64,000 nucleotides of DNA, from NCBI GenBank assembly GCA_963827655.1, contig CAWHCF010000050.1, forward strand, positions 96,001 through 160,000, read 5' to 3'. This document shows positions 1 through 39,065 of this stretch, in pieces (the first letter of the stretch is position 1; each line of letters begins with the position of its first letter). Source of the DNA: an uncultured Acidobacteriota bacterium (GTDB lineage: Bacteria; Acidobacteriota; UBA6911). The notes below the pieces were generated by a model. That model was given only the letters and a program-made list of their open reading frames with translations, ran no database searches and had not been told where the DNA came from. Made by a program: the position numbers and the translations under genes.

Positions 1-722
1 ATGGCGGGGCCATCTCGAATTACAACTCGATGCAAGTCACGGTATCGAAGCGGCTGTCACACGGGCTTCAGTTCGACAGTTCCTACACCTGGGCCAAAAA
101 CCTGGATGAAGGGAATAACCATCAAGACAGCTACGACATCGCAAACGACTGGTCGCTGACCGACATCGATCTGGCGCACCGGTTCGTCATGAGCTACATC
201 TACGAGCTGCCTTTCGGACGCAACCGGCACTTCGGCCAGGGCTGGTCCCCCTGGCTCAACGCAATTGCCGGAGGGTGGCAGTTCAACGGGATCACGGTAT
301 TCCAGAGCGGGACCACGCTGGCGCTGTCGGCGAGCAACACGGCCGGGATTTTCAACCCCTTGACCCGCCCGAACAACAACGGCCGCAGCGGGAAGCTGGA
401 CGGCCCGGTCGATGAGCGCCTGGATGCTTATTTCGACAAGTCGGTCTACAGCCCGCCACCCGCCTTTACTTTCGGGAATGTCAGCATGAGGCTCCCGGAC
501 ATCCGCAACGACGGCGTGCGCAATTTCGACCTGTCGATCTTCAAGGAGTTCCGGGTGGCCGAGAGGGTGAACGTGCAGTTCCGGACCGAGATGCTGAACG
601 CGTTCAACACCCCGCGCTTCGGCTCGCCGAACACGACCGTCACTGCGGGTGCGTTCGGCGTGATCAGCTCGCAGGCCAATGCGCCCCGTCAGGTTCAGTT
701 CGGGCTCAAGATCCTGTGGTAG
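1..722 (+). CDS. TonB-dependent receptor (Oar-like), C-terminal part, 5' truncated by window edge
   Basis: Beta-barrel C-terminus typical of acidobacterial receptors: [37 protein letters not shown]. Confidence 0.9.
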
Positions 723-785
723 GCCTTCGCCCGTATTCCAAGGACGCGCGCCCGCTAAACGGCCAAACTCCGTACCCCGCCCTCA

Positions 786-1012
786 GAAGATGTGAAAGAG
801 TTGGTCTGTGGGCGGGATGACAATGTTGCAAAACCCGCCCGGTTCATGTGCGGACGGGCTATCAAGCCCGTCCGGCCCCCTAGCGGCATTCTCAGTGGCC
901 CGGAATCGAGCGACCGCTCGCCTACACCCGAGGCCAAGCCGGAAGCTGCTGAGCCACATTTCCAGGGTAGAGCTGAAAACTTCAACGGATCTCATATGCG
1001 CGCCACAGACGC
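786..1012 (+). mobile_element. Degenerate nested MITE remnant (MITE-B left end enclosing a MITE-A copy)
   Basis: GAAGATGTGAAA at 786 matches 28303. TGTTGCAAAAC-CGCCCGGTTCATGTGCGGACGGGCTATCAAGCCCGTCCG (824-874) matches the 4723 and 28449 copies. Confidence 0.6.
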
Positions 1013-31040: not shown

Positions 31041-31900
31041 CTATTTCACGAATGTTCCCAGGCGGAGATCCAGCAGCGCCTGCTTGATCTCCTCTTCCGT
31101 GTTCATCACGAACGGACCATAGCGCGCAATCGGCTCATGCAGAGGCTTGCCGGAAACCAGCAGAAAGCGAACGCCGCGCTCCGTCGCGCGAACCTGCACT
31201 GAATCCCCGTCGCCAAACACGACCAGTCTGGGCTGGGTAACGGCGCTTCCTGCTTCCGGTCTGTAACACCGAAGATTCCCCCTCCCTCGTAGACGTAGGC
31301 AAAGGCCGTGTGTCCCTGCGGGATCGGATGAGCGAAGGAAACTTCCGCAGGCATTGAAATATCCAGGTAGGTCGGGTCTAACGCGATTTCGCTGACCGGA
31401 CCGTGCGCATCGCCGACCATCCCCGCGATCACTTTGATCTTCACCCCGTCCTTGGCGCTTACTTCTGGAATCTTCCCGGCGGCGTATTCCTGATAGCGCG
31501 GACGGGTCATCTTGAGCCTGGCCGGCAGGTTGACCCACAACTGAAACCCATTCAGTCGTCCTCCGCGCACCTGGGGCATTTCTTCATGCATGATCCCGCT
31601 CCCGGCGGTCATCCATTGAACATCGCCGGCGCCGATGCTGCCCGAATGCCCGATAGAATCCCGGTGATTCACGACGCCCGACAGCATGTAGGTCACGGTC
31701 TCTATGCCGCGGTGAGGATGCATCGGAAATCCCGCGATATAGTCGTCGGGGTTGTCTGAACCGAAATGGTCGAACAACAAGAACGGGTCCAGGTAATTCA
31801 GCGACCGCGTGGCTATGCTTCGTTTCAGCTTCACACCCGCGCCCTCGACTGTAGGCTCGGGATTCACGATTCGCTGCACGTTCCTGGGTTGTAATTCCAT
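31041..31900 (-). CDS. Pirin family protein, frameshift near 31255
   Basis: DPFLLFDHF, HPHRGIETVTY, MTAGSGIMHEE, QLWVNLP; EPIARYGPFVMN in another frame. Confidence 0.9.
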
Positions 31901-32152
31901 ATTCCCTCCCGCATCGTGGCAATGCCTCAACTAAGGGTCAAAATACTGGCGAGAGATTGGCGAAGTCAAACAAAGAAAGGACGCCACGGTTCTCCGCGAC
32001 AACTTCACATTCTGGCGCGAGAGTTGGTGGTCAGTTTTTTGAATCGGATTTTCCGTTTGCCTTGGAGTGCGGCAGCTTGCTGAGCTTGCTACCGCCCCCA
32101 AGGCGCAAGTAAGTTCTTAACCTTACAAGCATCTCATCGGTCTCGGCGATTT

Positions 32153-32239
32153 CGCCCCGGAGGGGGCGACGGAAATTAGCCCCGTGGCAAGCGAAGCGCA
32201 GCCCGGGGTTAGGGGTTTATAGTTTGTGCGCCCTGAAGG
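32153..32239. repeat. Left half of the REP/REPIN-like multi-hairpin element hosting the IS110
   Basis: CGCCCCGGAGGGGGCG, GGAAATTAGCC, GCAAGCGAAGCGC; inverted counterparts at 33904-34022. Confidence 0.75.
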
Positions 32240-32251
32240 TCCTGTGTTGTG

Positions 32252-32257
32252 AGTCAA
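32252..32257 (-). promoter_or_regulatory. -35 box (TTGACT) of the IS110 circle-junction promoter
   Basis: Overlaps the transposase TGA; lies 17 bp from TATGAT (33893-33898) once the ends are joined. Confidence 0.8.
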
Positions 32258-33603
32258 GCAATTTTTTTTAGTTTGGGGTCCACTTTTTTCCACAGTGCAC
32301 GGTTGTCCTTGTGCTGACGAACAAAAGTTTTCCACAGGCCCGCGTGATGGATTCGGATCTGTTCAATCATTCGATTTACATCGTACATCTGGTTTCGGGC
32401 GACCAGTGCCCAGATGACATGGGCCATTCTGTTCATCTCAGCGCAGACGGCCTGCTGGGGACACAGGCCGCGCTGGATCATTCGCCACTTATGAAACGCA
32501 AAGGCGGGGTCAAAGTTGCAGGCGGTCTGCGTAACCAGATACAGCATAGCTCGTTGCTTGTGGTCGCCCCGGGCGGTCAGATGTGTTTTGTTAAGCGAAG
32601 TTCCCGTTTGGGTCCGCTCAGGACAACTGGCCCATTGAGCCGACAAAGCCTTGCCCGAAACGAACCGGGCGAGTCCCCGTGTGCCCAGCACCAGAGTGGC
32701 GGCAGAGACTATGGCGATGCCGGGGATACTGTCGAGCAGCTCGACCTGGCGCGCCGCAGACACGCCTTCTTCGGGTGTTTCGGTCTCGGCTTTCGCCTGT
32801 TGTACATAGGCAACCAGGGTCCGCTCTATATAGGCCAACCTCTTCTCCAGCAACTCGAGCTGAGCGAGCAGAAAAACCATGGCCTCGGCGTCATCGTCCT
32901 CGCCGGCGCTGGCTATCGACTGCTTAGCCAAGAGGATCAGTTGTTGAGCCCGTTCTACTCCGAGAGACCGACCCCGCCGCTCAGACTTCACTCGAGCCAA
33001 AGACAGGGCCTGGCGACGGGCCGCACGTCGTGCGGTGGGAATCTCACTCAACACCGCCCGAGCGAGCTTTGCGAACGGGTCGGCGAAAACCTGGGTGAAC
33101 TCTGGAAAGCACACCAGCACTTGCTCGTGAATCCGGTTTTTGGTTGCCGCCAGATCCTGGACCAAACGCTGACGTTCACTAATCACACGAGTCATCGCCT
33201 GGGCTTTGGGATCGTAATCGAAGGCCTCCAGCCGACGTTCGTATACCCGGGTAAACTCCGCCACATGATCGGAGTCGGACCCATCGGTTTGATCGCGGCG
33301 CGGGTTGGGACCTCCAAAGCGCGCGCTCTGGCCCGGATTGACCCGAATCAGCCTGATATTGCGATCCTGACAGGTCAACTTCCATTCTCCAAGCCAGGCG
33401 ATCAGGTTGTCGTCTATCCGTCCGCTGGCCTCGATTCCGATCGTGAGATCCCCCTCTGGCAAGACAGACTTCAGACTCTCGAATCCCTCGCGCGACATGT
33501 CAAACTGCCGTGCTTTCCAAACCCTTTCTCCGGTCGAATGCACCAGAGTTGCTGCAAAAAAAGACTTGCCTGGGTCAATGCCCAGCACGAAACTAGCTGT
33601 CAT
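32254..33603 (-). CDS. IS110-family DEDD recombinase/transposase (449 aa)
   Basis: LGIDPGK, GIEASG, VNP, QTDGSD (DEDD); LLDSIPGI and PERTQTG (Tnp20 domain); AGGAGG RBS at 33610-33615. Confidence 0.93.
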   Translation of the reverse strand: MTASFVLGIDPGKSFFAATLVHSTGERVWKARQFDMSREGFESLKSVLPEGDLTIGIEASGRIDDNLIAWLGEWKLTCQDRNIRLIRVNPGQSARFGGPNPRRDQTDGSDSDHVAEFTRVYERRLEAFDYDPKAQAMTRVISERQRLVQDLAATKNRIHEQVLVCFPEFTQVFADPFAKLARAVLSEIPTARRAARRQALSLARVKSERRGRSLGVERAQQLILLAKQSIASAGEDDDAEAMVFLLAQLELLEKRLAYIERTLVAYVQQAKAETETPEEGVSAARQVELLDSIPGIAIVSAATLVLGTRGLARFVSGKALSAQWASCPERTQTGTSLNKTHLTARGDHKQRAMLYLVTQTACNFDPAFAFHKWRMIQRGLCPQQAVCAEMNRMAHVIWALVARNQMYDVNRMIEQIRIHHAGLWKTFVRQHKDNRALWKKVDPKLKKIA

Positions 33604-33627
33604 GGGAGCCCTCCTTGGGTTATCCCG

Positions 33628-33886
33628 CATCCGGGTCTCTCACCCTTGCGGCGATCCGCCTTAGTCAAGCGCGGTCCTGTACGAGATGAACCCGGTCTAC
33701 GGGCGGAAGAGCGACCTTCAGGACGAGCTCGAGGCTCACGGGGCGCACGCTTTCTTCCGCCCGTATTCTTTTGCGGACTTAAAATGATCCCACGGATTTC
33801 CACATTTCCACAGCAATTCACAAAGAGAAAGAAGCAAAGAGAAAGCTACTACTACTACTATTGATATTCTTACTTAATTGGGTGCC
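33628..33886 (-). ncRNA. Predicted IS110 bridge RNA (structured core 33631-33765; 5' end inferred from the promoter)
   Basis: Perfect 13-bp stem 33698-33710/33753-33765 encloses target-matching guides; second stem 33631-33641/33683-33695 encloses donor-matching guides. Confidence 0.85.
33796..33880 (+). other. oriC-like module: DnaA-box-like 9-mers + (CTA)5 trio-like run + AT-rich tract
   Basis: ATTTCCACA x2 (33796-33812), AATTCACA, purine spacer, CTA x5 (33846-33860), then TTGATATTCTTACTTAATT. Confidence 0.45.
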
Positions 33887-33892
33887 ACAATG

Positions 33893-33898
33893 ATCATA
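33893..33898 (-). promoter_or_regulatory. -10 box (TATGAT) of the IS110 circle-junction promoter
   Basis: Junction reads TTGACT-cacaacacagga-cctt-g-TATGAT (17-bp spacer). Confidence 0.8.
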
Positions 33899-33903
33899 CA
33901 AGG

Positions 33904-34022
33904 GGCGCCGGAGCATTGAGGGCCGTGTCCAGCGCCCCTCCGGGACGCGTCTCTTCGCGTGTCTGTGACCGGGGGCAGCGCTCCGCTTGCCCCCGGCTAA
34001 TTTCCTTCGCCCTTTCAGGGCG
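33904..34022. repeat. Right half of the REP/REPIN-like host element
   Basis: CGCCCCTCCGGGACG, CCGGGGGCAGCGCTCCGCTTGCCCCCGG, GGCTAATTTCC, CGCCCTTTCAGGGCG. Confidence 0.75.
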
Positions 34023-34109
34023 CGAGCTGGCGTAACCGTTCGTTCTGGACCAATACAAGATGCGTGTAAGGTTCAGAGCAAGCGTGCGCACTCCAAACCA
34101 ACACGAGCA

Positions 34110-37100
34110 CTAAGGCCACCAGCGCGTTGCGTCCTGCACCGAGGAATACGCCTCGGCCACCGCTTCCGCGCCTCCAACTGCGGCCAGCGCGCCGGCTGCA
34201 TTCGCCAGCACGGCGCAGATGTCCTTGCGAGTGCCCGTAGGAAGTCTGGTTATTGCCTGAGAGAACCAATCACCCCAGAACGGATAGAGACGGGCCGGGA
34301 GAAGTTCGAGTTTTGCCAGCCATTCGATCAACGGCGGACTGCTCTTGTGCAAAGAAAAGACGTCTTCGAGCAGAGCATCCGATAAGAATGGACTTAGCAG
34401 GTCGATCACGCGAATTGGATCATCGATCGCCAGCACGGCTTCCCGGGCGACTTCCTCTCGTAACGGAGTCGCCAACCGCGCGGCCAGGGCGGCCAGCGCC
34501 TCGGCGCGGCGCGGCTTGAAATCAATCTCACGAGCGACAGTGAGCGCCTCGGGAAGTAACTCCTCCGGGAGACGCGGCGCCAAAGACTTCAGCGCTTCGT
34601 AACGTTCGAACAGGGGGATCTTGCGGGTCATCGCGAGCGCCTCAGGCAGCAGAGCCGCCGGAATATGAGGCGCCAGGTGTGTTAGATTCCAGCTCACGTA
34701 AGGAGATTGCTCTACCAGCTCGAGCGCCTTGGGAACGGCCTCTCTCTTAGCGTCCTCCGGCAGGTTGGGAATCAGTTCCACCAGGGTGTGGAGGCGGTCG
34801 TGCTCATAATCGATTCCGAGCGCGAGAGAAAGGGCTTCGCGGGCAACAGCGGAAAGGAGCCTCGCCTTGGAGGCACTGCAACAGGTACTGCAAAGCCGGC
34901 AACCGGTTTGCCTCCTGCAATTCGGCGGCATGCTTTTCGCGCCTCCTGGATGCAACTATTTCGGCGCACTCCAGACAACCGGGGAATAACGCTCCCGCAA
35001 TACCTGGCACCTTTCCCAGGAATCTTCAAATTCATTCGCAGCCCGAAGAAATTCGTCGATCAGCGATTCTGGAACGCTCCTGGCCAGATGGGCCAAAGCC
35101 CTGGCCCGCACGTCCAGGAATTTGATCGATCGAGCGCGGGCCAGCGCCTGTGCGAAAAGGGGTGCGGGCAACCGCGGCGCGAGGTGCTGCAGCACCGTTA
35201 CCTGATCGTCGGTGTGATGTTCCAGCACGGCAGCGAGTGCCTCTCCCAGCAGCCTTGCCGGAAGATAGGGCGCCAGCGCGATCATGGAGTTGACCCGATC
35301 GCGCGAGTAGATCGAGAGTTCCCGCACCGCGGCCAGCGCTTCGTCGAACAGATGATCCGGGAGATGCGGGGCAAGGACGGCTAATATTTTCGCTCGCTCT
35401 CGGAAGTCCGGCGTTTTGCGCATCTGCGCGAGCGCCTCGGCCAGGGCTCGCTCGCGCGATTCACCGGGAAGGTGAAGAGCCAGGCTCCATAGGACCTGTT
35501 CGCATTCGTATCGATCTCCGACTTCGCGGCGCGCGTCTACCGTCTCGCGCAGCACTTGCTTGGTCTCGCCCTCAGGCAGGTAGGGCACAAGGTCAAACAG
35601 TGCTTCCGAGCGCTTCCACCCGAAGCCCACGCCGATCGAGCGCGCCACCTTCAACGCCTCGCGGAGGAGATCATCCCGGAATGGGCCTGTGGCGCGTTTG
35701 ATGAAGCTCGCCAGCGCGGTGACTCGATAGCCGGCGTCTTCGATCCTGCCGGTCACTGCCACGGCTTTCGGGAGGAATTCTTGCGGGAGGCACTCGGCTA
35801 TTTCGGTCAGGGTGGTCGATCGCCTCAGCTCGTCGTCAATTCGCTCAACCGCCGACAGCGCTCGACGCGCGGCTCGCGACCGGATACTTCCGGTGAGATG
35901 AGGGGCAAGCCGCGCCAGCAACTTGGCGCAATCATCCTGGTCCTGAACGGCTGATGCCGCGGCTACGGCCTCGCGCCGGGCGCCGGGCGCGAGATACGGC
36001 GCAAGTTCGACGAAAATGTCGGCGCGCCGCCACTCGTTGATCTTGTTCTCGAAATGCTCTGCATCTCTCAGCCGCCGGCGCAGAATCGTTCCCCCCAGGA
36101 ATGCAGGCCAGTGAGGCGCCAGGGCTGAAGCCAGTCTGGACCGAAACACAACCGGGATCGAGCGAGCCGCTCGAACGGCTTCCTGAATCACTTGCTCTTT
36201 CGCTGTTTCGGGCAGGCGGGGAATCAAGGATACGAGCAGAGTGCCACGGGAATAGCCATCTGCCTGGCGTAGATGATGCCAGCGACGTACACGCAACTGG
36301 CGCGCGATCTCCAGGATGCTCGAGAGCAGCGATTCCGGCACGAAAGGAACCAGATGTTTCAAAGCGCCGGGAAGCTCAACTGCGCTTGAAAGAGCCCTTT
36401 CCATCAACGACTCGGGCAGCGAGGGGGCTAGAGCCGCGAGCGCCTTGCCCCGGTAATAGTTATCCAGGACGCCGATTCTCTCGATCGCCTCTCCAAGACA
36501 TGATTCGGGCAGATAGGGCGTCAAAGCGGTGAGAGTATTGACGCAAGTATCAGGATCGCGAATGGTCCAAACGAACTGCGAGGCTTCCCGAACCAGTGAA
36601 TCCGGGAGCTGGGGGGCTAGTTCCCGCATCGCTTCGGCTACTTTCGTTGAATATCTGTAGTCGGTGGTTTCCCGCAAGGCGGTGAGCGCCTCTTGAAGAA
36701 CCTCTTGCTTCCGTTCGCCTGTGGCATGTCGTGCCAGGGCGCTCAGGGCCTTGCATCGGTCATCGGGAGAAGAGACCCTTCGTGCTACCCCCAGCGCCTC
36801 CCGCAGCACATCGTCTTTGAAATCCGGCGGCACATACGGGAAAAGCGCCGCCAGCCCCATGGAACTGACATCTGCATATCTGGCGTTTCGAGCGTAGGCC
36901 AGCGCCTGCTCCCATGACCAGACTCCGTGTTTGACCAGGGCCTCCAGGAGCGGTGGTTCGATATGCCAGGCCAGACTTCTGAGCGAGGCGGCAATGATGG
37001 CGTACCGGACTTCGAGTCCTATGCTGGCGGGGATTTTCCCCTGACGTCCCTCCCCGGCCGACATCCGCTCGCTCATGGCCCGCGCACGGCTGAGATCGCT

Positions 37101-39065
37101 CAGATATCCCGACGTATCGCCGGCCTGTTCGCGTGCGGCGAACCAGGCGTTCACGGCCTGAGGCCCGAAAGCTTTGTCCTGCTCGGGCCATTCCACCTGG
37201 AAGAGAGCCCGCACATCCCGTTCCCGGCCGGCGCCCTCCAGGTGAGTCACAAGGTGCCGAAGCCCATAGCGCTCGTCCAGCTGGACGGACGTGGTCTCCC
37301 TCAAATTGGGCAACCCGGCCGCAAGTCCTCCCCAGGCGTTGATGTATCGGTCGGCAAAGCGCGAATGCGCGCTGCGTGTGGCTTCGGCGATTTCTGTCGC
37401 GAAGCGACGCTCGCCGCTTGTCATTTCACTTGCATCCGCCCTTCCATCCAGGAATTCTCGCAGACTGGCATGGTGGAGGCGGTATCGAGGCTCGGGGCCC
37501 TCGCTAACCGTGACAAATGCGATCCAAGCCTGTTCCAGGAGCCGCCGTGCTGCGGGCTCAGCCGTCACGCCGGAAACGGAACAGAGGAACTTCAGGGAAC
37601 AGTCTTCCTGGGCGGCGGCCAGGCTGGTGAGCAGCGGCAGTTGGATCGCGTCCCACTCGTCGGCGTGCTCTCTTCGCCATCGCTGCCAGTAGCGGGCATA
37701 GTACTGCCACACCCCCTGAGGCAAGGTTTCGAGTTCCAGCGGAGACCGTTCGCCGCTTTCGATTTCGCCGACAACGTAGTGCAGATAGATCCATACACCG
37801 CGAGATTTATCGAGTAGTTTCTCGACGAAGCGATCCGGCGAAAATTCGCTTTTTCTGAGCGCCTGGGAAATTTTCTCCAGCCCGGCCGTGCGCTCCACAT
37901 AAGCGCGCATGTCAGCCAGGTTGTTGGCATCCCCGGCTTCCAGTGTTACAACTCGGCGCGAAGTATCGACCATTAGCGAAACCTCCACCGGCCTCTGGGA
38001 AACCAGGAAATAGACACCTTCCGGCACCACCCCTGGCAACCCCAGGACGTTTTGTCCTGGAGGCGTGCCCGCCTCATCGAGCGCATCGACGACGACGACA
38101 ATCTTCTCGCCTGGAGCCACTTCGTCTCGTTTGCGGGCGGCCTCAACCAGCAACGTCTGCAGGTAGTCGGGACGCGTGGCAGCTCCTGGCAGCACCTCAT
38201 CGAGGCCGTAAGGATTCAGCTTCCACGAGCGAATCAGCTGAGCCGCCAGATTCTTGAGTCCCGGTCCAATTCCATCGGCGCCGGGGGCCAGTTCGACAAA
38301 GTGGTGAATGTATCCGCGCTCCTTTACCAGATAAGCGAGCAGGGCTGTCTTGCCCAAACCCGCTTTGGCTTCGAGCACAAAATAACCGGAGGAACTCTCG
38401 GAGAGAAACGTATCGAACTGGCGGGTCAACCATTCGCGGCCGACGAAGCGGTCGAGCCGCACCCTTCGGAATACCGACCACGGCTGAATGTAAGCATCGC
38501 GCAGCCGCTGGTAATCGCCAACAAACACCTGATTGTGGCTTCCGGAGACGACCACACTGCGGATGACCTCGCCTCCGACTCCTATCTGCGCCACCAACCA
38601 GTTGTGCAGGTCTGCGGTGATTTTGGCCGCAAGCTCATGCGGATTGCTGAATTCGGTGACCGTGTGGCGGTCCGGTGCCCGCAGCTCCTGTTTAAGCGCG
38701 GTCAGCCGCGCCGATTTATCAGGGTCGGTTTCGCGCCAGGATGGGTCGATGGCCGATTCGGCTTTGAAATAAATGAAGCAGGGCAGGCCGCGCTCCTGGG
38801 CGCGCCGGTACTCTCGCTCGGTGATGCCCGAACCGTAGCGGCCTCCGAAAATGCCGATGTAAACCTGGCTTCGGTCTACTTCGTCGAGCGATGCCACTTC
38901 GGTCGTTTCATCGCGGCTGCCGAAATACTCCATGCCGACGAACTTGGTGTCTCTCATGCGCTGGAGCGAAGCCTCCACGGCCTCGCGCTCGGGCTTCAGG
39001 TCGAGCGAGGTCGAACTCACAAATACCGCTACCGTTACCGCAGGTCGGGGAGGCATGGGGCGCAT
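34110..39065 (-). CDS. DUF4062 + STAND/NACHT-like NTPase + helical repeat protein (about 1650 aa), with several frameshifts at about 34860-35000
   Basis: VFVSSTSLDL...GGRYGS..TEREY (DUF4062); AKAGLGKT, VVVDALDE; repeated AL..LAP.LP units continue into the 34110-34955 ORF. Confidence 0.85.

Follow-up and report, generated by a model that had tools for sequence, protein, structure and literature searches.

Bridge recombinases of the IS110 family are intensively studied for programmable genome editing, but little is known of how they are regulated in nature or which host factors they require. In the closest described elements, IS621 and ISCro4, a recombinase with DEDD (RuvC-like) and Tnp domains is accompanied by a left-end RNA with target and donor loops, the promoter is split over the right and left ends, the core is short and contains CT, and insertion occurs in a repeated intergenic sequence. 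Outside this family, the basal unwinding system (BUS) of replication origins arranges DnaA boxes, DnaA-trios and an AT-rich region in one order and polarity; the published rules ask for three or more trimers with a central A and put the spacer between the box and the first trio at 0-16 bp, with a mode of 10-13. In the transposon field, the accessible text of PMC3347997 counts DnaA among the host proteins co-opted by these elements and describes a DnaA site in the ends of Tn5/IS50. There, one box lies within the 19 bp at the end of a DDE element to which the transposase binds. Finally, the boxA/Nus signals of rRNA operons and lambda nut are short pyrimidine-rich linear motifs found soon after a promoter and before a long untranslated structured RNA.

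The element described here lies in the window, a stretch of 64,000 nucleotides from an uncultured Acidobacteriota bacterium, and shares with IS621 and ISCro4 the protein domains, the two-looped left-end RNA, the split promoter, a short core (CCTT, containing CT) and the insertion in a repeated intergenic sequence. In contrast to them, its left end is longer by about 100 nt, which lie between junction promoter and loops and include an invariant CT-rich block, a TAG run and DnaA-box-like 9-mers, and further boxes are present in the 3' end of its recombinase gene; among the papers listed by a literature search, none was found to describe such a left-end block or boxes in IS110 elements. An earlier note on this DNA had read the extra stretch as an oriC-like unwinding module through which the excised circle may recruit host DnaA, either to be replicated or melted, or to tie bridge-RNA transcription and transposition to the cell cycle. 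In the left-end non-coding region of this IS110 bridge-RNA element, the stretch makes up the half nearer to the promoter.

An IS110-family element with a split promoter and a bridge RNA

The window carries an IS110-family element that is active in this genome. Its main parts, apart from the block itself, are the following:

32240..33903, minus strand: IS110-family insertion sequence of 1664 bp, one copy of the 4-base core AAGG/CCTT counted
32252..32257, minus strand: -35 hexamer TTGACT of the predicted junction promoter (ends joined in silico), overlapping the right-end stop codon
32254..33603, minus strand: recombinase (transposase) gene, 449 aa, with its ATG at 33603
32258..32269, minus strand: A-tract AAAAAAAATTGC, immediately upstream of the -35 and nearly invariant in a right-end alignment of 28 sequences
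33604..33629, minus strand: hairpin around the ribosome-binding site GGAGG, before the ATG at 33603 (consensus-fold pairs, columns 192 and 214)
33630..33696, minus strand: donor-binding loop of the bridge RNA (consensus fold)
33699..33764, minus strand: target-binding loop of the bridge RNA, stem ACGGGCGGAAGA/TCTTCCGCCCGT (consensus fold)
33739-33747 and 33715-33722, minus strand: target-loop guides TGCGCCCCG and CCTGAAGG, respectively
33766..33795, minus strand: variable segment before the loops, a hairpin of variable length in relatives (alignment columns 1-36)
33893..33898, minus strand: -10 hexamer TATGAT of the predicted junction promoter, left-end bases 2-7

The host site is a genome-wide repeat of about 340 bp into which the insertion sequence has inserted, as seen from two occupied copies and from empty repeats. 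The second copy of the element, on another contig (C53), is identical over 32227 to 33915 and has different flanks; the two copies known in the genome occupy the same point of the repeat with the core AAGG at both junctions (32236-32239 and 33900-33903 in the window), and where the repeat is empty, as in five copies, its sequence is ...CCCTGAAGG|GGCG.... Such site-specific insertion with a short shared core is characteristic of the IS110 family, whose elements lack terminal inverted repeats. The protein domains are characteristic as well: an N-terminal DEDD (RuvC-like) domain (DEDD_Tnp_IS110, PF01548, E 9.5e-19) and a C-terminal Tnp domain (Transposase_20, PF02371, E 2.7e-11). The AlphaFold model of the recombinase (pLDDT 84.6) shows a fold match to 8wt9_A, a chain of the IS621 recombinase (E 3.2e-11; TM on the target, 0.68). 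The IS621 chains have about 320 aa, and the 449-aa protein is longer by some 130 residues and has extra helices.

The bridge RNA shows the two-looped guide architecture of the family, with a consensus fold of 20 sequences reaching -60.95 kcal/mol with 51 pairs, six of them compensatory. The target guides match the two strands of the target ...GGCGCCCCTTCAGGG..., and the left one co-varies with the flank among relatives, while the donor guide ACAGGACC (33673-33680) equals the right end plus the core (32238-32245). We also considered a short reading frame of 73 aa that spans the bridge RNA (33600-33821) and rejected it, since the variable hairpin differs in length among relatives by numbers of bases that are not multiples of three. 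When the ends are joined, the hexamers read TTGACT-17 bp-TATGAT, a spacing that exists only in the joined form; by its sequence, this is the junction-reconstituted promoter of the IS110 family. The predicted design is present in all 20 relatives with both ends in the locus (one further locus lacks the right end). The A-tract upstream of the -35 may be read as an UP-like element.

Public data hold a subfamily of about 87 proteins. Searching the genome contigs with a single protein retrieved no close relatives, and a second scan of these contigs gave one partial locus (L060). No match was obtained in viral contigs with either a protein alignment or a 26-mer pattern, in plasmids with the protein, or in plasmids and phages with the DNA of the block. 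An Rfam scan of 31500-34500 returned only two sub-threshold matches to Acido-Lenti-1, both in the flanking repeat.

A conserved left-end block of short motifs and similar sites at the right end

The block lies downstream of the junction promoter and upstream of the bridge-RNA loops (33630-33764), just where the earlier note had placed it, as the coordinates of the -35 and -10 hexamers and of the loops agree. Its parts, together with the similar sites of the right end, are:

33796..33812, minus strand: left-end boxes, TGTGGAAAT twice with a one-base overlap; relatives have TGTGGAAAT and then TGTGNAAAA
33815..33822, minus strand: TGTGAATT, a weak box-like element; relatives have TGTGAATG or TGTGGATG
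33819..33845, minus strand: CT-rich block, an invariant 26-mer (the purine-rich spacer of the earlier note), with CTTTCTCTTTG twice (33821-33831 and 33835-33845)
33846..33860, minus strand: (TAG)5 run, (CTA)5 on the plus strand, its GTAGTAG core kept in most relatives
33861..33892, minus strand: variable spacer (the AT tract of the earlier note), variable in sequence and constant in length
32328..32336, minus strand: right-end site 1, TGTGGAAAA, full relaxed DnaA-box consensus, codons L-W-K-T, at -97 to -89
32286..32294, minus strand: right-end site 2, TGTGGAAAA here (codons L-W-K-K), TATGGAAAA in most relatives, at -55 to -47

The motifs that had been pointed out earlier are all there. On the plus strand, ATTTCCACA occurs at 33796-33804 and 33804-33812, each copy matching 8/9 positions of TTWTNCACA and differing at two from TTATCCACA, which is within the two mismatches allowed to origin boxes; the copies have one base in common and thus form an 8-bp tandem. 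The caution that these boxes are imperfect holds for the left end of this copy of the element, where none exceeds 8/9. They are followed by AATTCACA (33815-33822, one base to the left of a simple count from the earlier description), by a purine-rich 23-mer (33823-33845) and by (CTA)5 (33846-33860), which continues as TTG ATA TTC TTA CTT to give ten trimers with a central T, a run that none of 1000 shuffles reached. The tract is AT-rich as described, with 68% AT in 33796-33880 and 67% in 33846-33899 versus 39% in the rest of the left end, in a window of 61% GC. Since the element is on the minus strand, its own orientation reads (TAG)5, the CT-rich 26-mer, TGTGAATT and then TGTGGAAAT twice. The whole 1664-bp element contains four sites within one mismatch of the relaxed box (TGTGNAWAA), all in one orientation and near the ends, versus about one expected by an estimate from base composition, which is weak for the window alone; the case rests on conservation in relatives. 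In RNA-library contigs of near-identical elements, the (TAG)5 run is 3 or 2 bases shorter. Among metatranscriptome contigs from four RNA runs, two of one study end at 33799 and one of another at 33845, both at repeats, and these ends are uninformative on starts or strand.

Comparisons were made with 25 to 32 related left ends (32 distinct in one set, 25 in another), a sample of about a third of the subfamily whose members are related, so that counts overstate their independence. The alignment of these non-coding ends showed the block kept and constrained and its boxes nearly invariant; it is thus neither absent nor unconstrained in relatives, the outcome that the earlier note had named as telling against its proposal. 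Across 32 left ends with recombinases of 40-98% identity, the CT block shows little or no variation. A relaxed box with zero mismatches lies at left-end positions +85 to +99 in 26/29 loci, a set with near-duplicates, and another inside the recombinase gene, at its 3' end, in 28/30; all have one orientation, and only three other matches occur in these loci. The position that varies in the second left-end box is the N of the consensus, and the three outgroups (L052, L054 and L055) all carry a perfect TGTGGATAA in their left ends. At the level of sequence, relatives then possess a conserved 9-mer matching the DnaA-box consensus, as would mark a DnaA-box site in a transposon end.

The trimers and the AT tract behave differently. 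The TAG copy number ranges from 0 to 7 among relatives, and of 26 distinct left ends only 7 have a trimer run beyond that of shuffles. At least three trimers adjoin the CT block in 20/26, with only 2-3 in 10/26 and none in 4/26. As to the trimer phase, which the earlier note had suggested comparing among relatives, the run is displaced by one base with respect to the boxes in 11 of 32 left ends. The variable spacer is only mildly AT-rich in relatives, with a mean AT content of 0.55 where the remaining left end has 0.40; its sequence is not conserved, and despite this the CT block stays 49-57 nt away from the terminus in all 32.

The block lacks a conserved RNA fold: the consensus of 25 left ends gave -0.52 kcal/mol, with 8 pairs and no compensatory change, and its folding energy against shuffles had a mean z of -0.85 on either strand (+1.2 for the window's own copy). 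A hairpin between purine-rich parts of the variable spacer and the CT block, suggested by single-sequence folds, was rejected on these grounds, with a consensus fold close to zero and energies no better than those of shuffles. The CT block might also pair over a longer distance, either with the target-loop stem or with the donor loop on its 3' side. This was likewise discarded: both partners are invariant, which leaves no covariation, and by eye no single register is kept in the outgroups.

At the right end, TGTGGAAAAC of site 1 is invariant in 28/28 aligned sequences. Its Lys codon (K425) is AAA in 27/27, compared with 48% AAA elsewhere, and its Thr codon is ACT in 24/27, so that conservation reaches past the 9-mer. 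Only 13 of 309 codon columns are fixed at 95% or more, and two of these fall within the two TGGAAA sites. In site 2, Lys is AAA in 24/25 relatives and Leu is the rare CTA in 15/25, a codon used for 6 of 1219 Leu residues elsewhere in the genes; the TATGGAAAA held by CTA departs from the DnaA consensus, and therefore some of the constraint on site 2 is not due to DnaA. Moreover, both sites encode the conserved residues L-W-K, so their conservation is partly at the protein level.

Boxes are also present in a second lineage. The locus L079, whose recombinase is only 21.5% identical, carries CCTGTGGAAAACTTTC upstream of the gene and TGTGGATAA, TGTGGAAAT and TGTGCAAAA in the gene 3' end, with gaps of 3 and 2 bp. 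An upstream box was found in only 1 of 27 other IS110-family loci of the phylum, and it is therefore not a family-wide trait.

Proposed host-factor sites and other readings of the block

The explanation that we favour, with a probability of about 0.4 and judging from sequence, is that the block consists of host-factor sites, probably for DnaA, around the junction promoter, plus a separate CT-rich element, and that it is not an unwinding module of the chromosomal type. A conserved host protein would most likely bind the TGTGGAAA elements, and DnaA is the leading candidate. The block is an array of short linear motifs, lacks a conserved fold and stays some 55 bp from the crossover site. The TGTGGAAA sites are all in one orientation and near both ends (left, +88 to +104; right, -97 to -89 and -55 to -47), and therefore come to flank the junction promoter in the circle. 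Their occupancy may modulate transcription of the bridge RNA and the recombinase, or assembly at the ends, and such modulation would tie transposition to the replication state of the host. The invariant CT-rich 26-mer and the adjoining TAG run would form a separate element.

The host genome itself points to DnaA. Among the 214 relaxed boxes in its 8.18 Mb only six pairs lie within 150 bp, two of them at dnaA and two being the insertion sequence copies. The 12-mer CTGTGGAAAACT of right-end site 1 occurs three times in the genome, in the dnaA 5' region and in each copy of the element, and the four occurrences of CTGTGGAAAAC correspond to both dnaA boxes and the two copies. What stands from the earlier note is in this way its DnaA-box part, conserved, at full consensus in most relatives and matching the host dnaA boxes, and its weaker alternative, in which DnaA links transcription or transposition to the cell cycle, would be the best candidate; the unwinding module is not supported. 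The DnaA site of the IS50/Tn5 outside end may serve as a precedent, although here several candidate boxes, instead of one, lie 47-104 bp inside both ends of an element with an RNA-guided recombinase and flank the junction promoter. The two TGTGGAAAT copies of the window overlap, which would make simultaneous occupancy of both difficult. The CT block, the most conserved piece, is unexplained by a DnaA-site reading.

Since the block is transcribed, or at least present in RNA libraries, its motifs may also be read at the RNA level, an explanation that we hold as a possible second, clearly behind host-factor sites on DNA. The block would be the single-stranded 5' leader of the bridge-RNA/recombinase transcript, serving as a protein platform: it lies about 40 nt downstream of the junction-promoter start, its sequence is invariant and without fold, and the remaining bridge-RNA scaffold is just as invariant. 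RNA-library contigs do cover it (X15, 33606-33919; X18, 33545-33845), but strand, start and level are not readable from them. One candidate is a boxA-like Nus-factor antitermination signal in the CT block, which would shield the untranslated leader of about 290 nt from Rho. CTCTTTG occurs there twice, the TCTTT(G) core is found in the boxA of the host rRNA leader (TCTTTG in common with GATCTTTGAAAA), and TCTCTTTGTGA matches 7/10 specified positions of GYTCTTTAANA; unlike boxA, the motif is duplicated and lacks the first G, which is U here, the same change as in the function-lowering boxA5 mutation. Hfq, with the (A-G-U)n run and the U-rich tract as its targets, would be another candidate, as would an additional contact with the recombinase, which is unusually long. 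Any of them would leave the right-end TGGAAA sites in need of a separate explanation, and neither a perfect DnaA consensus in the outgroups nor identity to the host dnaA boxes is expected for an RNA motif; covariation with which pairing could be judged is also lacking.

Arm-type accessory sites are an unlikely third explanation, in which TGTGGAAA would be DNA bound by the recombinase itself or by a bending protein, pairing the ends for excision or shaping the donor junction in the manner of the arm sites of phage attachment. The geometry is suggestive: right-end site 1 is at -97 to -89 in 17/20 relatives (-96 in one, absent in two), and the first base of the left-end box falls between +84 and +91 (+88 in 9/20), so the distances from the two ends are mirrored, although this could be a coincidence because the right-end spacing is set by coding sequence. 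Direct orientation, the constant distance from the terminus to the block through variable sequence, and a recombinase with extra helices with respect to the IS621 chains also fit. On the other hand, no arm-binding domain was identified in the recombinase, the solved IS621 and ISCro4 complexes involve, to judge by their entry titles, only core-proximal DNA, and a self-encoded site would not be required to equal the host DnaA box.

Basal unwinding as at oriC, the main proposal of the earlier note, fares worse and we regard it as improbable. A DnaA filament loaded from the boxes onto the TAG/CTA trimers would melt the AT tract, and the circle would be replicated, primed or opened. The order and polarity of boxes, CTA-type trimers and AT-rich stretch are indeed the same as in the host's own dnaA-dnaN spacer, the window has ten central-A trimers, and the boxes are conserved. 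In addition, recent preprints report single-strand or copy-out excision of IS110 elements, which makes the route to double-stranded intermediates a question. In the same improbable range we place the extended version, in which the subfamily would have recruited DnaA so that the boxes astride the junction, the TAG run and the AT-rich region let it open or prime the excised intermediate, as the element's own initiation site for producing or amplifying a double-stranded donor circle, with the 33-bp spacing bridged by a binder of the CT block. That spacing, 33 bp from the box and 23 bp from the weak AATTCACA, had already been noted as longer than canonical; it exceeds the maximum of 16 in origins, and the pattern matches only when the limit is raised to 40, whereas the host dnaA-dnaN spacer (TTTTCAACA, spacer of 9-12 bp, 5-6 trios) passes the rule. 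The intervening 26-mer, without central-A trimers, is invariant and not explained by the model. Among relatives the trimer run varies in number and register, and the sequence of the AT tract is not kept; the tract holds the -10 hexamer and start region of the junction promoter, which also account for its AT content. The element encodes no replication protein and is a mobile-element site, not one at dnaA, and the published pattern is permissive, with 125 genomic sites having a box and at least five trimers within 16 bp.

The least probable reading is an internal promoter (TTGTGA as -35, the TGTGNAAAAT region as -10) giving a bridge RNA of about 190 nt from the integrated copy, a position just before the variable hairpin and loops that would suit the expression without junction promoter that IS621 requires according to the accessible text of PMC13626964, but that text ascribes basal expression to read-through, a consensus promoter scan of the linear left end (33550-33950, both strands) gave no promoter-like site, the last T of the -10 is not conserved, and the TGTGGATAA of the outgroups fits a DnaA box better than a -10.

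Meaning for bridge-RNA elements

The strictly conserved extra left-end block of this subfamily has no counterpart in the IS621 model, and whichever of the readings above is right, its CT-rich 26-mer, being invariant, offers mutagenesis a clean target. The case also illustrates how a plausible origin-like pattern can fail a published spacing rule that the host's own origin passes. If TGTGGAAA does bind DnaA, an RNA-guided IS110 element would for the first time be linked to the replication cycle of its host, and this would bear on the processing and timing of copy-out or single-strand intermediates.

The element and its left end

The sequence under study lies in the left end (LE) of an IS110-family element whose recombinase has a predicted structure (pLDDT 84.6) matching the IS621 recombinase of bridge-RNA complexes (8wt9_A, E 3.2e-11). 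When the sequence was re-read, every motif listed in the earlier note was found at its place, and that observation is confirmed: the trimers with a central T that follow the purine run are ten in all, and the AT content of 33796-33880 is 68%, in a window with 61% GC.

Table. The element, the flagged stretch and RNA-library contigs (window coordinates)
32240-33903, minus strand: IS110-family insertion sequence
32254-33603, minus strand: recombinase, 449 aa, DEDD_Tnp_IS110 and Transposase_20 domains
33796-33804 and 33804-33812, plus strand: two copies of ATTTCCACA, one base common to both
33815-33822, plus strand: AATTCACA
33823-33845, plus strand: purine run, 23 bases
33846-33860, plus strand: (CTA)5, then TTG ATA TTC TTA CTT
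33606-33919: RNA-library contig X15, over the block
33545-33845: RNA-library contig X18, over the block

A second copy of the element, on contig C53, is identical over 32227-33915, with flanks that differ at 28 positions in the 2 kb compared, and both copies are inserted at the same point of a ~340-bp repeat present in dozens of copies genome-wide. Five empty repeat copies read ...CCCTGAAGG/GGCG..., from which the ends of the element and a 4-base core (AAGG; CCTT in element orientation) were placed, leaving only 14 bases past the stop codon at the right end (RE) and 296 non-coding bases at the LE. The target repeat flanks the element at 32099-32239 and 33904-34097, has 112 matches in the genome (70-98% identical) and contains a GGCTAATTT...hairpin motif, for which the Acido-Lenti-1 RNA family scores below threshold (24.2 and 18 bits; gathering score 37). 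Beside the element, a 1369-aa ORF (34110-39065, minus strand) that carries DUF4062 and weakly matches NPHP3_N (NTPase) is directly abutted by a 281-aa ORF at 34955/34956; the pair is repetitive and helical-repeat-like in sequence, and may represent a STAND-like gene that is split or has two parts.

Joining the ends yields TTGACT-17 bp-TATGAT, a candidate split promoter reconstructed in 20/20 relatives with both ends in the locus. The 3' two-thirds of the LE adopt a two-loop fold (-60.95 kcal/mol, 51 pairs, 6 of them compensatory, in a 20-sequence alignment), in which TGCGCCCCG and CCTGAAGG of the first loop match the two strands of the target, and ACAGGACC of the second corresponds to the right end plus core. 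Because the joined ends form this promoter and the guide loops fold and match in this way, the earlier note was correct in placing the block between junction promoter and bridge-RNA loops. A conserved hairpin with GGGAU...AUCCC-type pairs (33604-33629) encloses the ribosome-binding site of the recombinase, and could limit its translation. In four RNA libraries, contigs extend over the recombinase gene and the LE, block included; they give presence only, neither strand, start nor level, and their breaks at 33799 and 33845 coincide with repeats. For IS621, PMC13626964 describes the junction promoter and also weak expression of the integrated element by read-through.

The recombinase subfamily is well bounded, with 87 proteins 41-98% identical and the next at no more than 29%. 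When metagenomes were scanned with 35 aligned subfamily proteins, 42 loci were obtained, and a genome scan gave one partial locus; 32 distinct left ends were aligned, and 25 in a separate second alignment. The resulting order is as follows.

Table. Order of the left end, in element orientation
1: core, then GTATGATC, conserved and containing the -10
2: ~40 nt of variable sequence
3: TAG-type trimer run, GTAGTAG core conserved
4: TTTCTCTTTGCTTCTTTCTCTTTGTG (CT block), invariant or nearly so, with CTTTCTCTTTG inside it twice
5: AAT-G-N-C, then TGTGGAAAT, then GTGNAAAA, nearly invariant
6: hairpin of variable length, then the two loops

The CT block stands 49-57 nt, mostly 54, from the terminus, although the intervening sequence varies. 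In the aligned left ends of relatives the module is thus both present and under constraint, its most conserved part being what had been taken for a spacer and its least conserved the proposed AT tract. An RNA structure was ruled out by a near-zero consensus fold of LE positions 1-112 (-0.52 kcal/mol, 8 pairs, 0 compensatory) and by folding energies of the 5' part no better than those of shuffles (mean z -0.85 on either strand; +1.2 for the window's copy). The block consists of linear motifs, to be read on double-stranded DNA or unstructured RNA.

DnaA-box-like sites on both sides of the junction

The box-like 9-mers of the earlier note proved conserved, with the full relaxed consensus in relatives, while the window's own copies reach only 8/9. 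The second LE box of relatives is TGTGNAAAA, a full match whose varying position is the N of the consensus. In a set of loci that includes near-duplicates, boxes with zero mismatches occur at LE +85 to +99 in 26/29 and within the final 100 nt of the recombinase gene in 28/30, all in one orientation, and only 3 further matches were found elsewhere in those loci. Moreover, a perfect TGTGGATAA occupies the homologous LE place in 3/3 outgroups (L052, L054 and L055, with recombinases ~40% identical). Among 27 other IS110-family loci of the phylum, a sample that omits the window's own locus, one from an unpublished genome and one with too little upstream sequence, only one carries a box within 400 nt upstream of the gene. 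This locus (L079, G029:C175), whose recombinase is 21.5% identical to that of the window, has CCTGTGGAAAACTTTC 352 nt upstream of the start codon; at its 3' gene end is a tandem array of three DnaA-box-like 9-mers, TGTGGATAA, TGTGGAAAT and TGTGCAAAA, spaced 3 and 2 bp apart. The element is present in a single copy, with undefined ends.

At the RE, the window has TTTTCCACA at 32286 (site 2) and 32328 (site 1), plus strand. These sites fall in codons for a conserved L-W-K and are constrained beyond the protein level: at site 1, Lys is AAA in 27/27 (48% elsewhere) and Thr is ACT in 24/27, and of 309 codon columns just 13 reach 95% fixation, the Lys codons of both sites among them. Relative to the right terminus, site 1 occupies -97 to -89 in 17/20 relatives, and the LE box starts at +84 to +91; in the window, TGTGGAAA is found at 32328-32336 (-97 to -89) and 33804-33812 (+88 to +96), ~188 bp apart across the junction. 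From these near-mirrored distances, the sites would flank the junction promoter in the circle, roughly equidistant and in direct orientation, and site 2 and an A-tract lie close upstream of the -35.

In the host genome, relaxed boxes number 214 in 8.18 Mb and form six pairs within 150 bp, two of them at the dnaA 5' end and two being the IS copies; another of the six is an inverted TTTTTCACA pair, 131 bp apart, at window 28177 and 28308. Of the 12-mer CTGTGGAAAACT the genome contains three occurrences (dnaA once, each IS copy once), and of the 11-mer CTGTGGAAAAC four, one in each dnaA box and one in each IS copy. At the dnaA 5' end (G000 C10:164820-164853), two inverted CTGTGGAAAAC boxes are separated by TGTGAAAAT; because the longest ORF call includes them, dnaA probably starts at a codon further downstream.

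Several findings speak against DnaA as the only explanation. The LE boxes of the window itself are 8/9 and overlapping, conservation of RE site 1 runs past the 9-mer, and RE site 2 (32286-32294), whose Leu precedes Trp in window and relatives, is held as TATGGAAAA through the rare CTA codon in 15/25 relatives, CTA being 6/1219 of Leu codons elsewhere. Such codon choice indicates that RE site 2 is under some constraint at the nucleotide level that is not a DnaA box. A DnaA site in the Tn5/IS50 ends offers a precedent (PMC3347997, in the portion available). Overall, we consider the TGTGGAAA sites good candidates for host DnaA boxes flanking the junction promoter, and give the reading as a whole a probability of roughly 40%.

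The CT block and the comparison with an origin

For the CT block, no convincing partner exists among the candidates considered. A minority reading takes it for a boxA-like antitermination signal, since it shares TCTTTG with the host rRNA-leader element GATCTTTGAAAA, fits 7/10 specified positions of the boxA consensus GYTCTTTAANA and stands shortly after a promoter and before a long untranslated RNA, a suitable position for antitermination; however, the first boxA G is U here, as in the function-lowering boxA5 mutation. In the host rRNA leader (L063 ~1395-1415; G000 C8), the boxA-like CTGATCTTTGAAAAC lies ~100 nt upstream of the 16S start.

Less survives of the oriC-like unwinding module, of DnaA boxes, DnaA-trios and AT tract, originally proposed for the block. 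The published rules of the basal unwinding system, as given in PMC8287927 (a box with at most 2 mismatches from TTATCCACA, 0-16 bp of spacer with a mode of 10-13, and at least 3 central-A trimers), were re-implemented and run on the host dnaA-dnaN spacer and on the IS block. The former passes, with TTTTCAACA, a spacer of 9-12, GTC CTA CTA ATT CTT CTA and an AT-rich stretch, and looks like a textbook origin unwinding region; its polarity (boxes, CTA-type trimers, AT-rich sequence) is indeed that of the block. In this host spacer (G000 C10:163073-163425; L061 ~614-966, minus strand), TTGTCCACA, TTTTTCACA and TTTTCAACA precede the trimers. The IS block has a spacing of 33 bp, or 23 bp from AATTCACA, itself with 3 mismatches, and was matched only once the spacer limit was raised to 40; on the trio strand, the 26-mer between boxes and trimers contains not one central-A trimer.

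The long trimer run characterises the window's clade and one other, beats shuffles in 7/26 distinct left ends, is absent beside the CT block in 4/26 and is off by one base in its register to the boxes in 11/32 left ends. Near-identical elements carry 5 (window), 4 (L018) and 7 (L019) TAG copies, and RNA-library contigs have 3- or 2-base deletions in this run. As for the AT tract, the variable spacer of relatives is mildly AT-rich (0.55 vs 0.40) and contains the -10 and start region of the junction promoter. On these grounds we do not class the block among unwinding modules, and an origin-like mechanism is improbable.

Two preprints report single-strand or copy-out excision of IS110 elements, and a term search for DnaA in the second returned no occurrence; the literature searched on IS110 with DnaA, and on DnaA boxes with transposition, yielded no account of such boxes. 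The block is genuine, conserved and hitherto undescribed, an accessory region of one bridge-recombinase subfamily.
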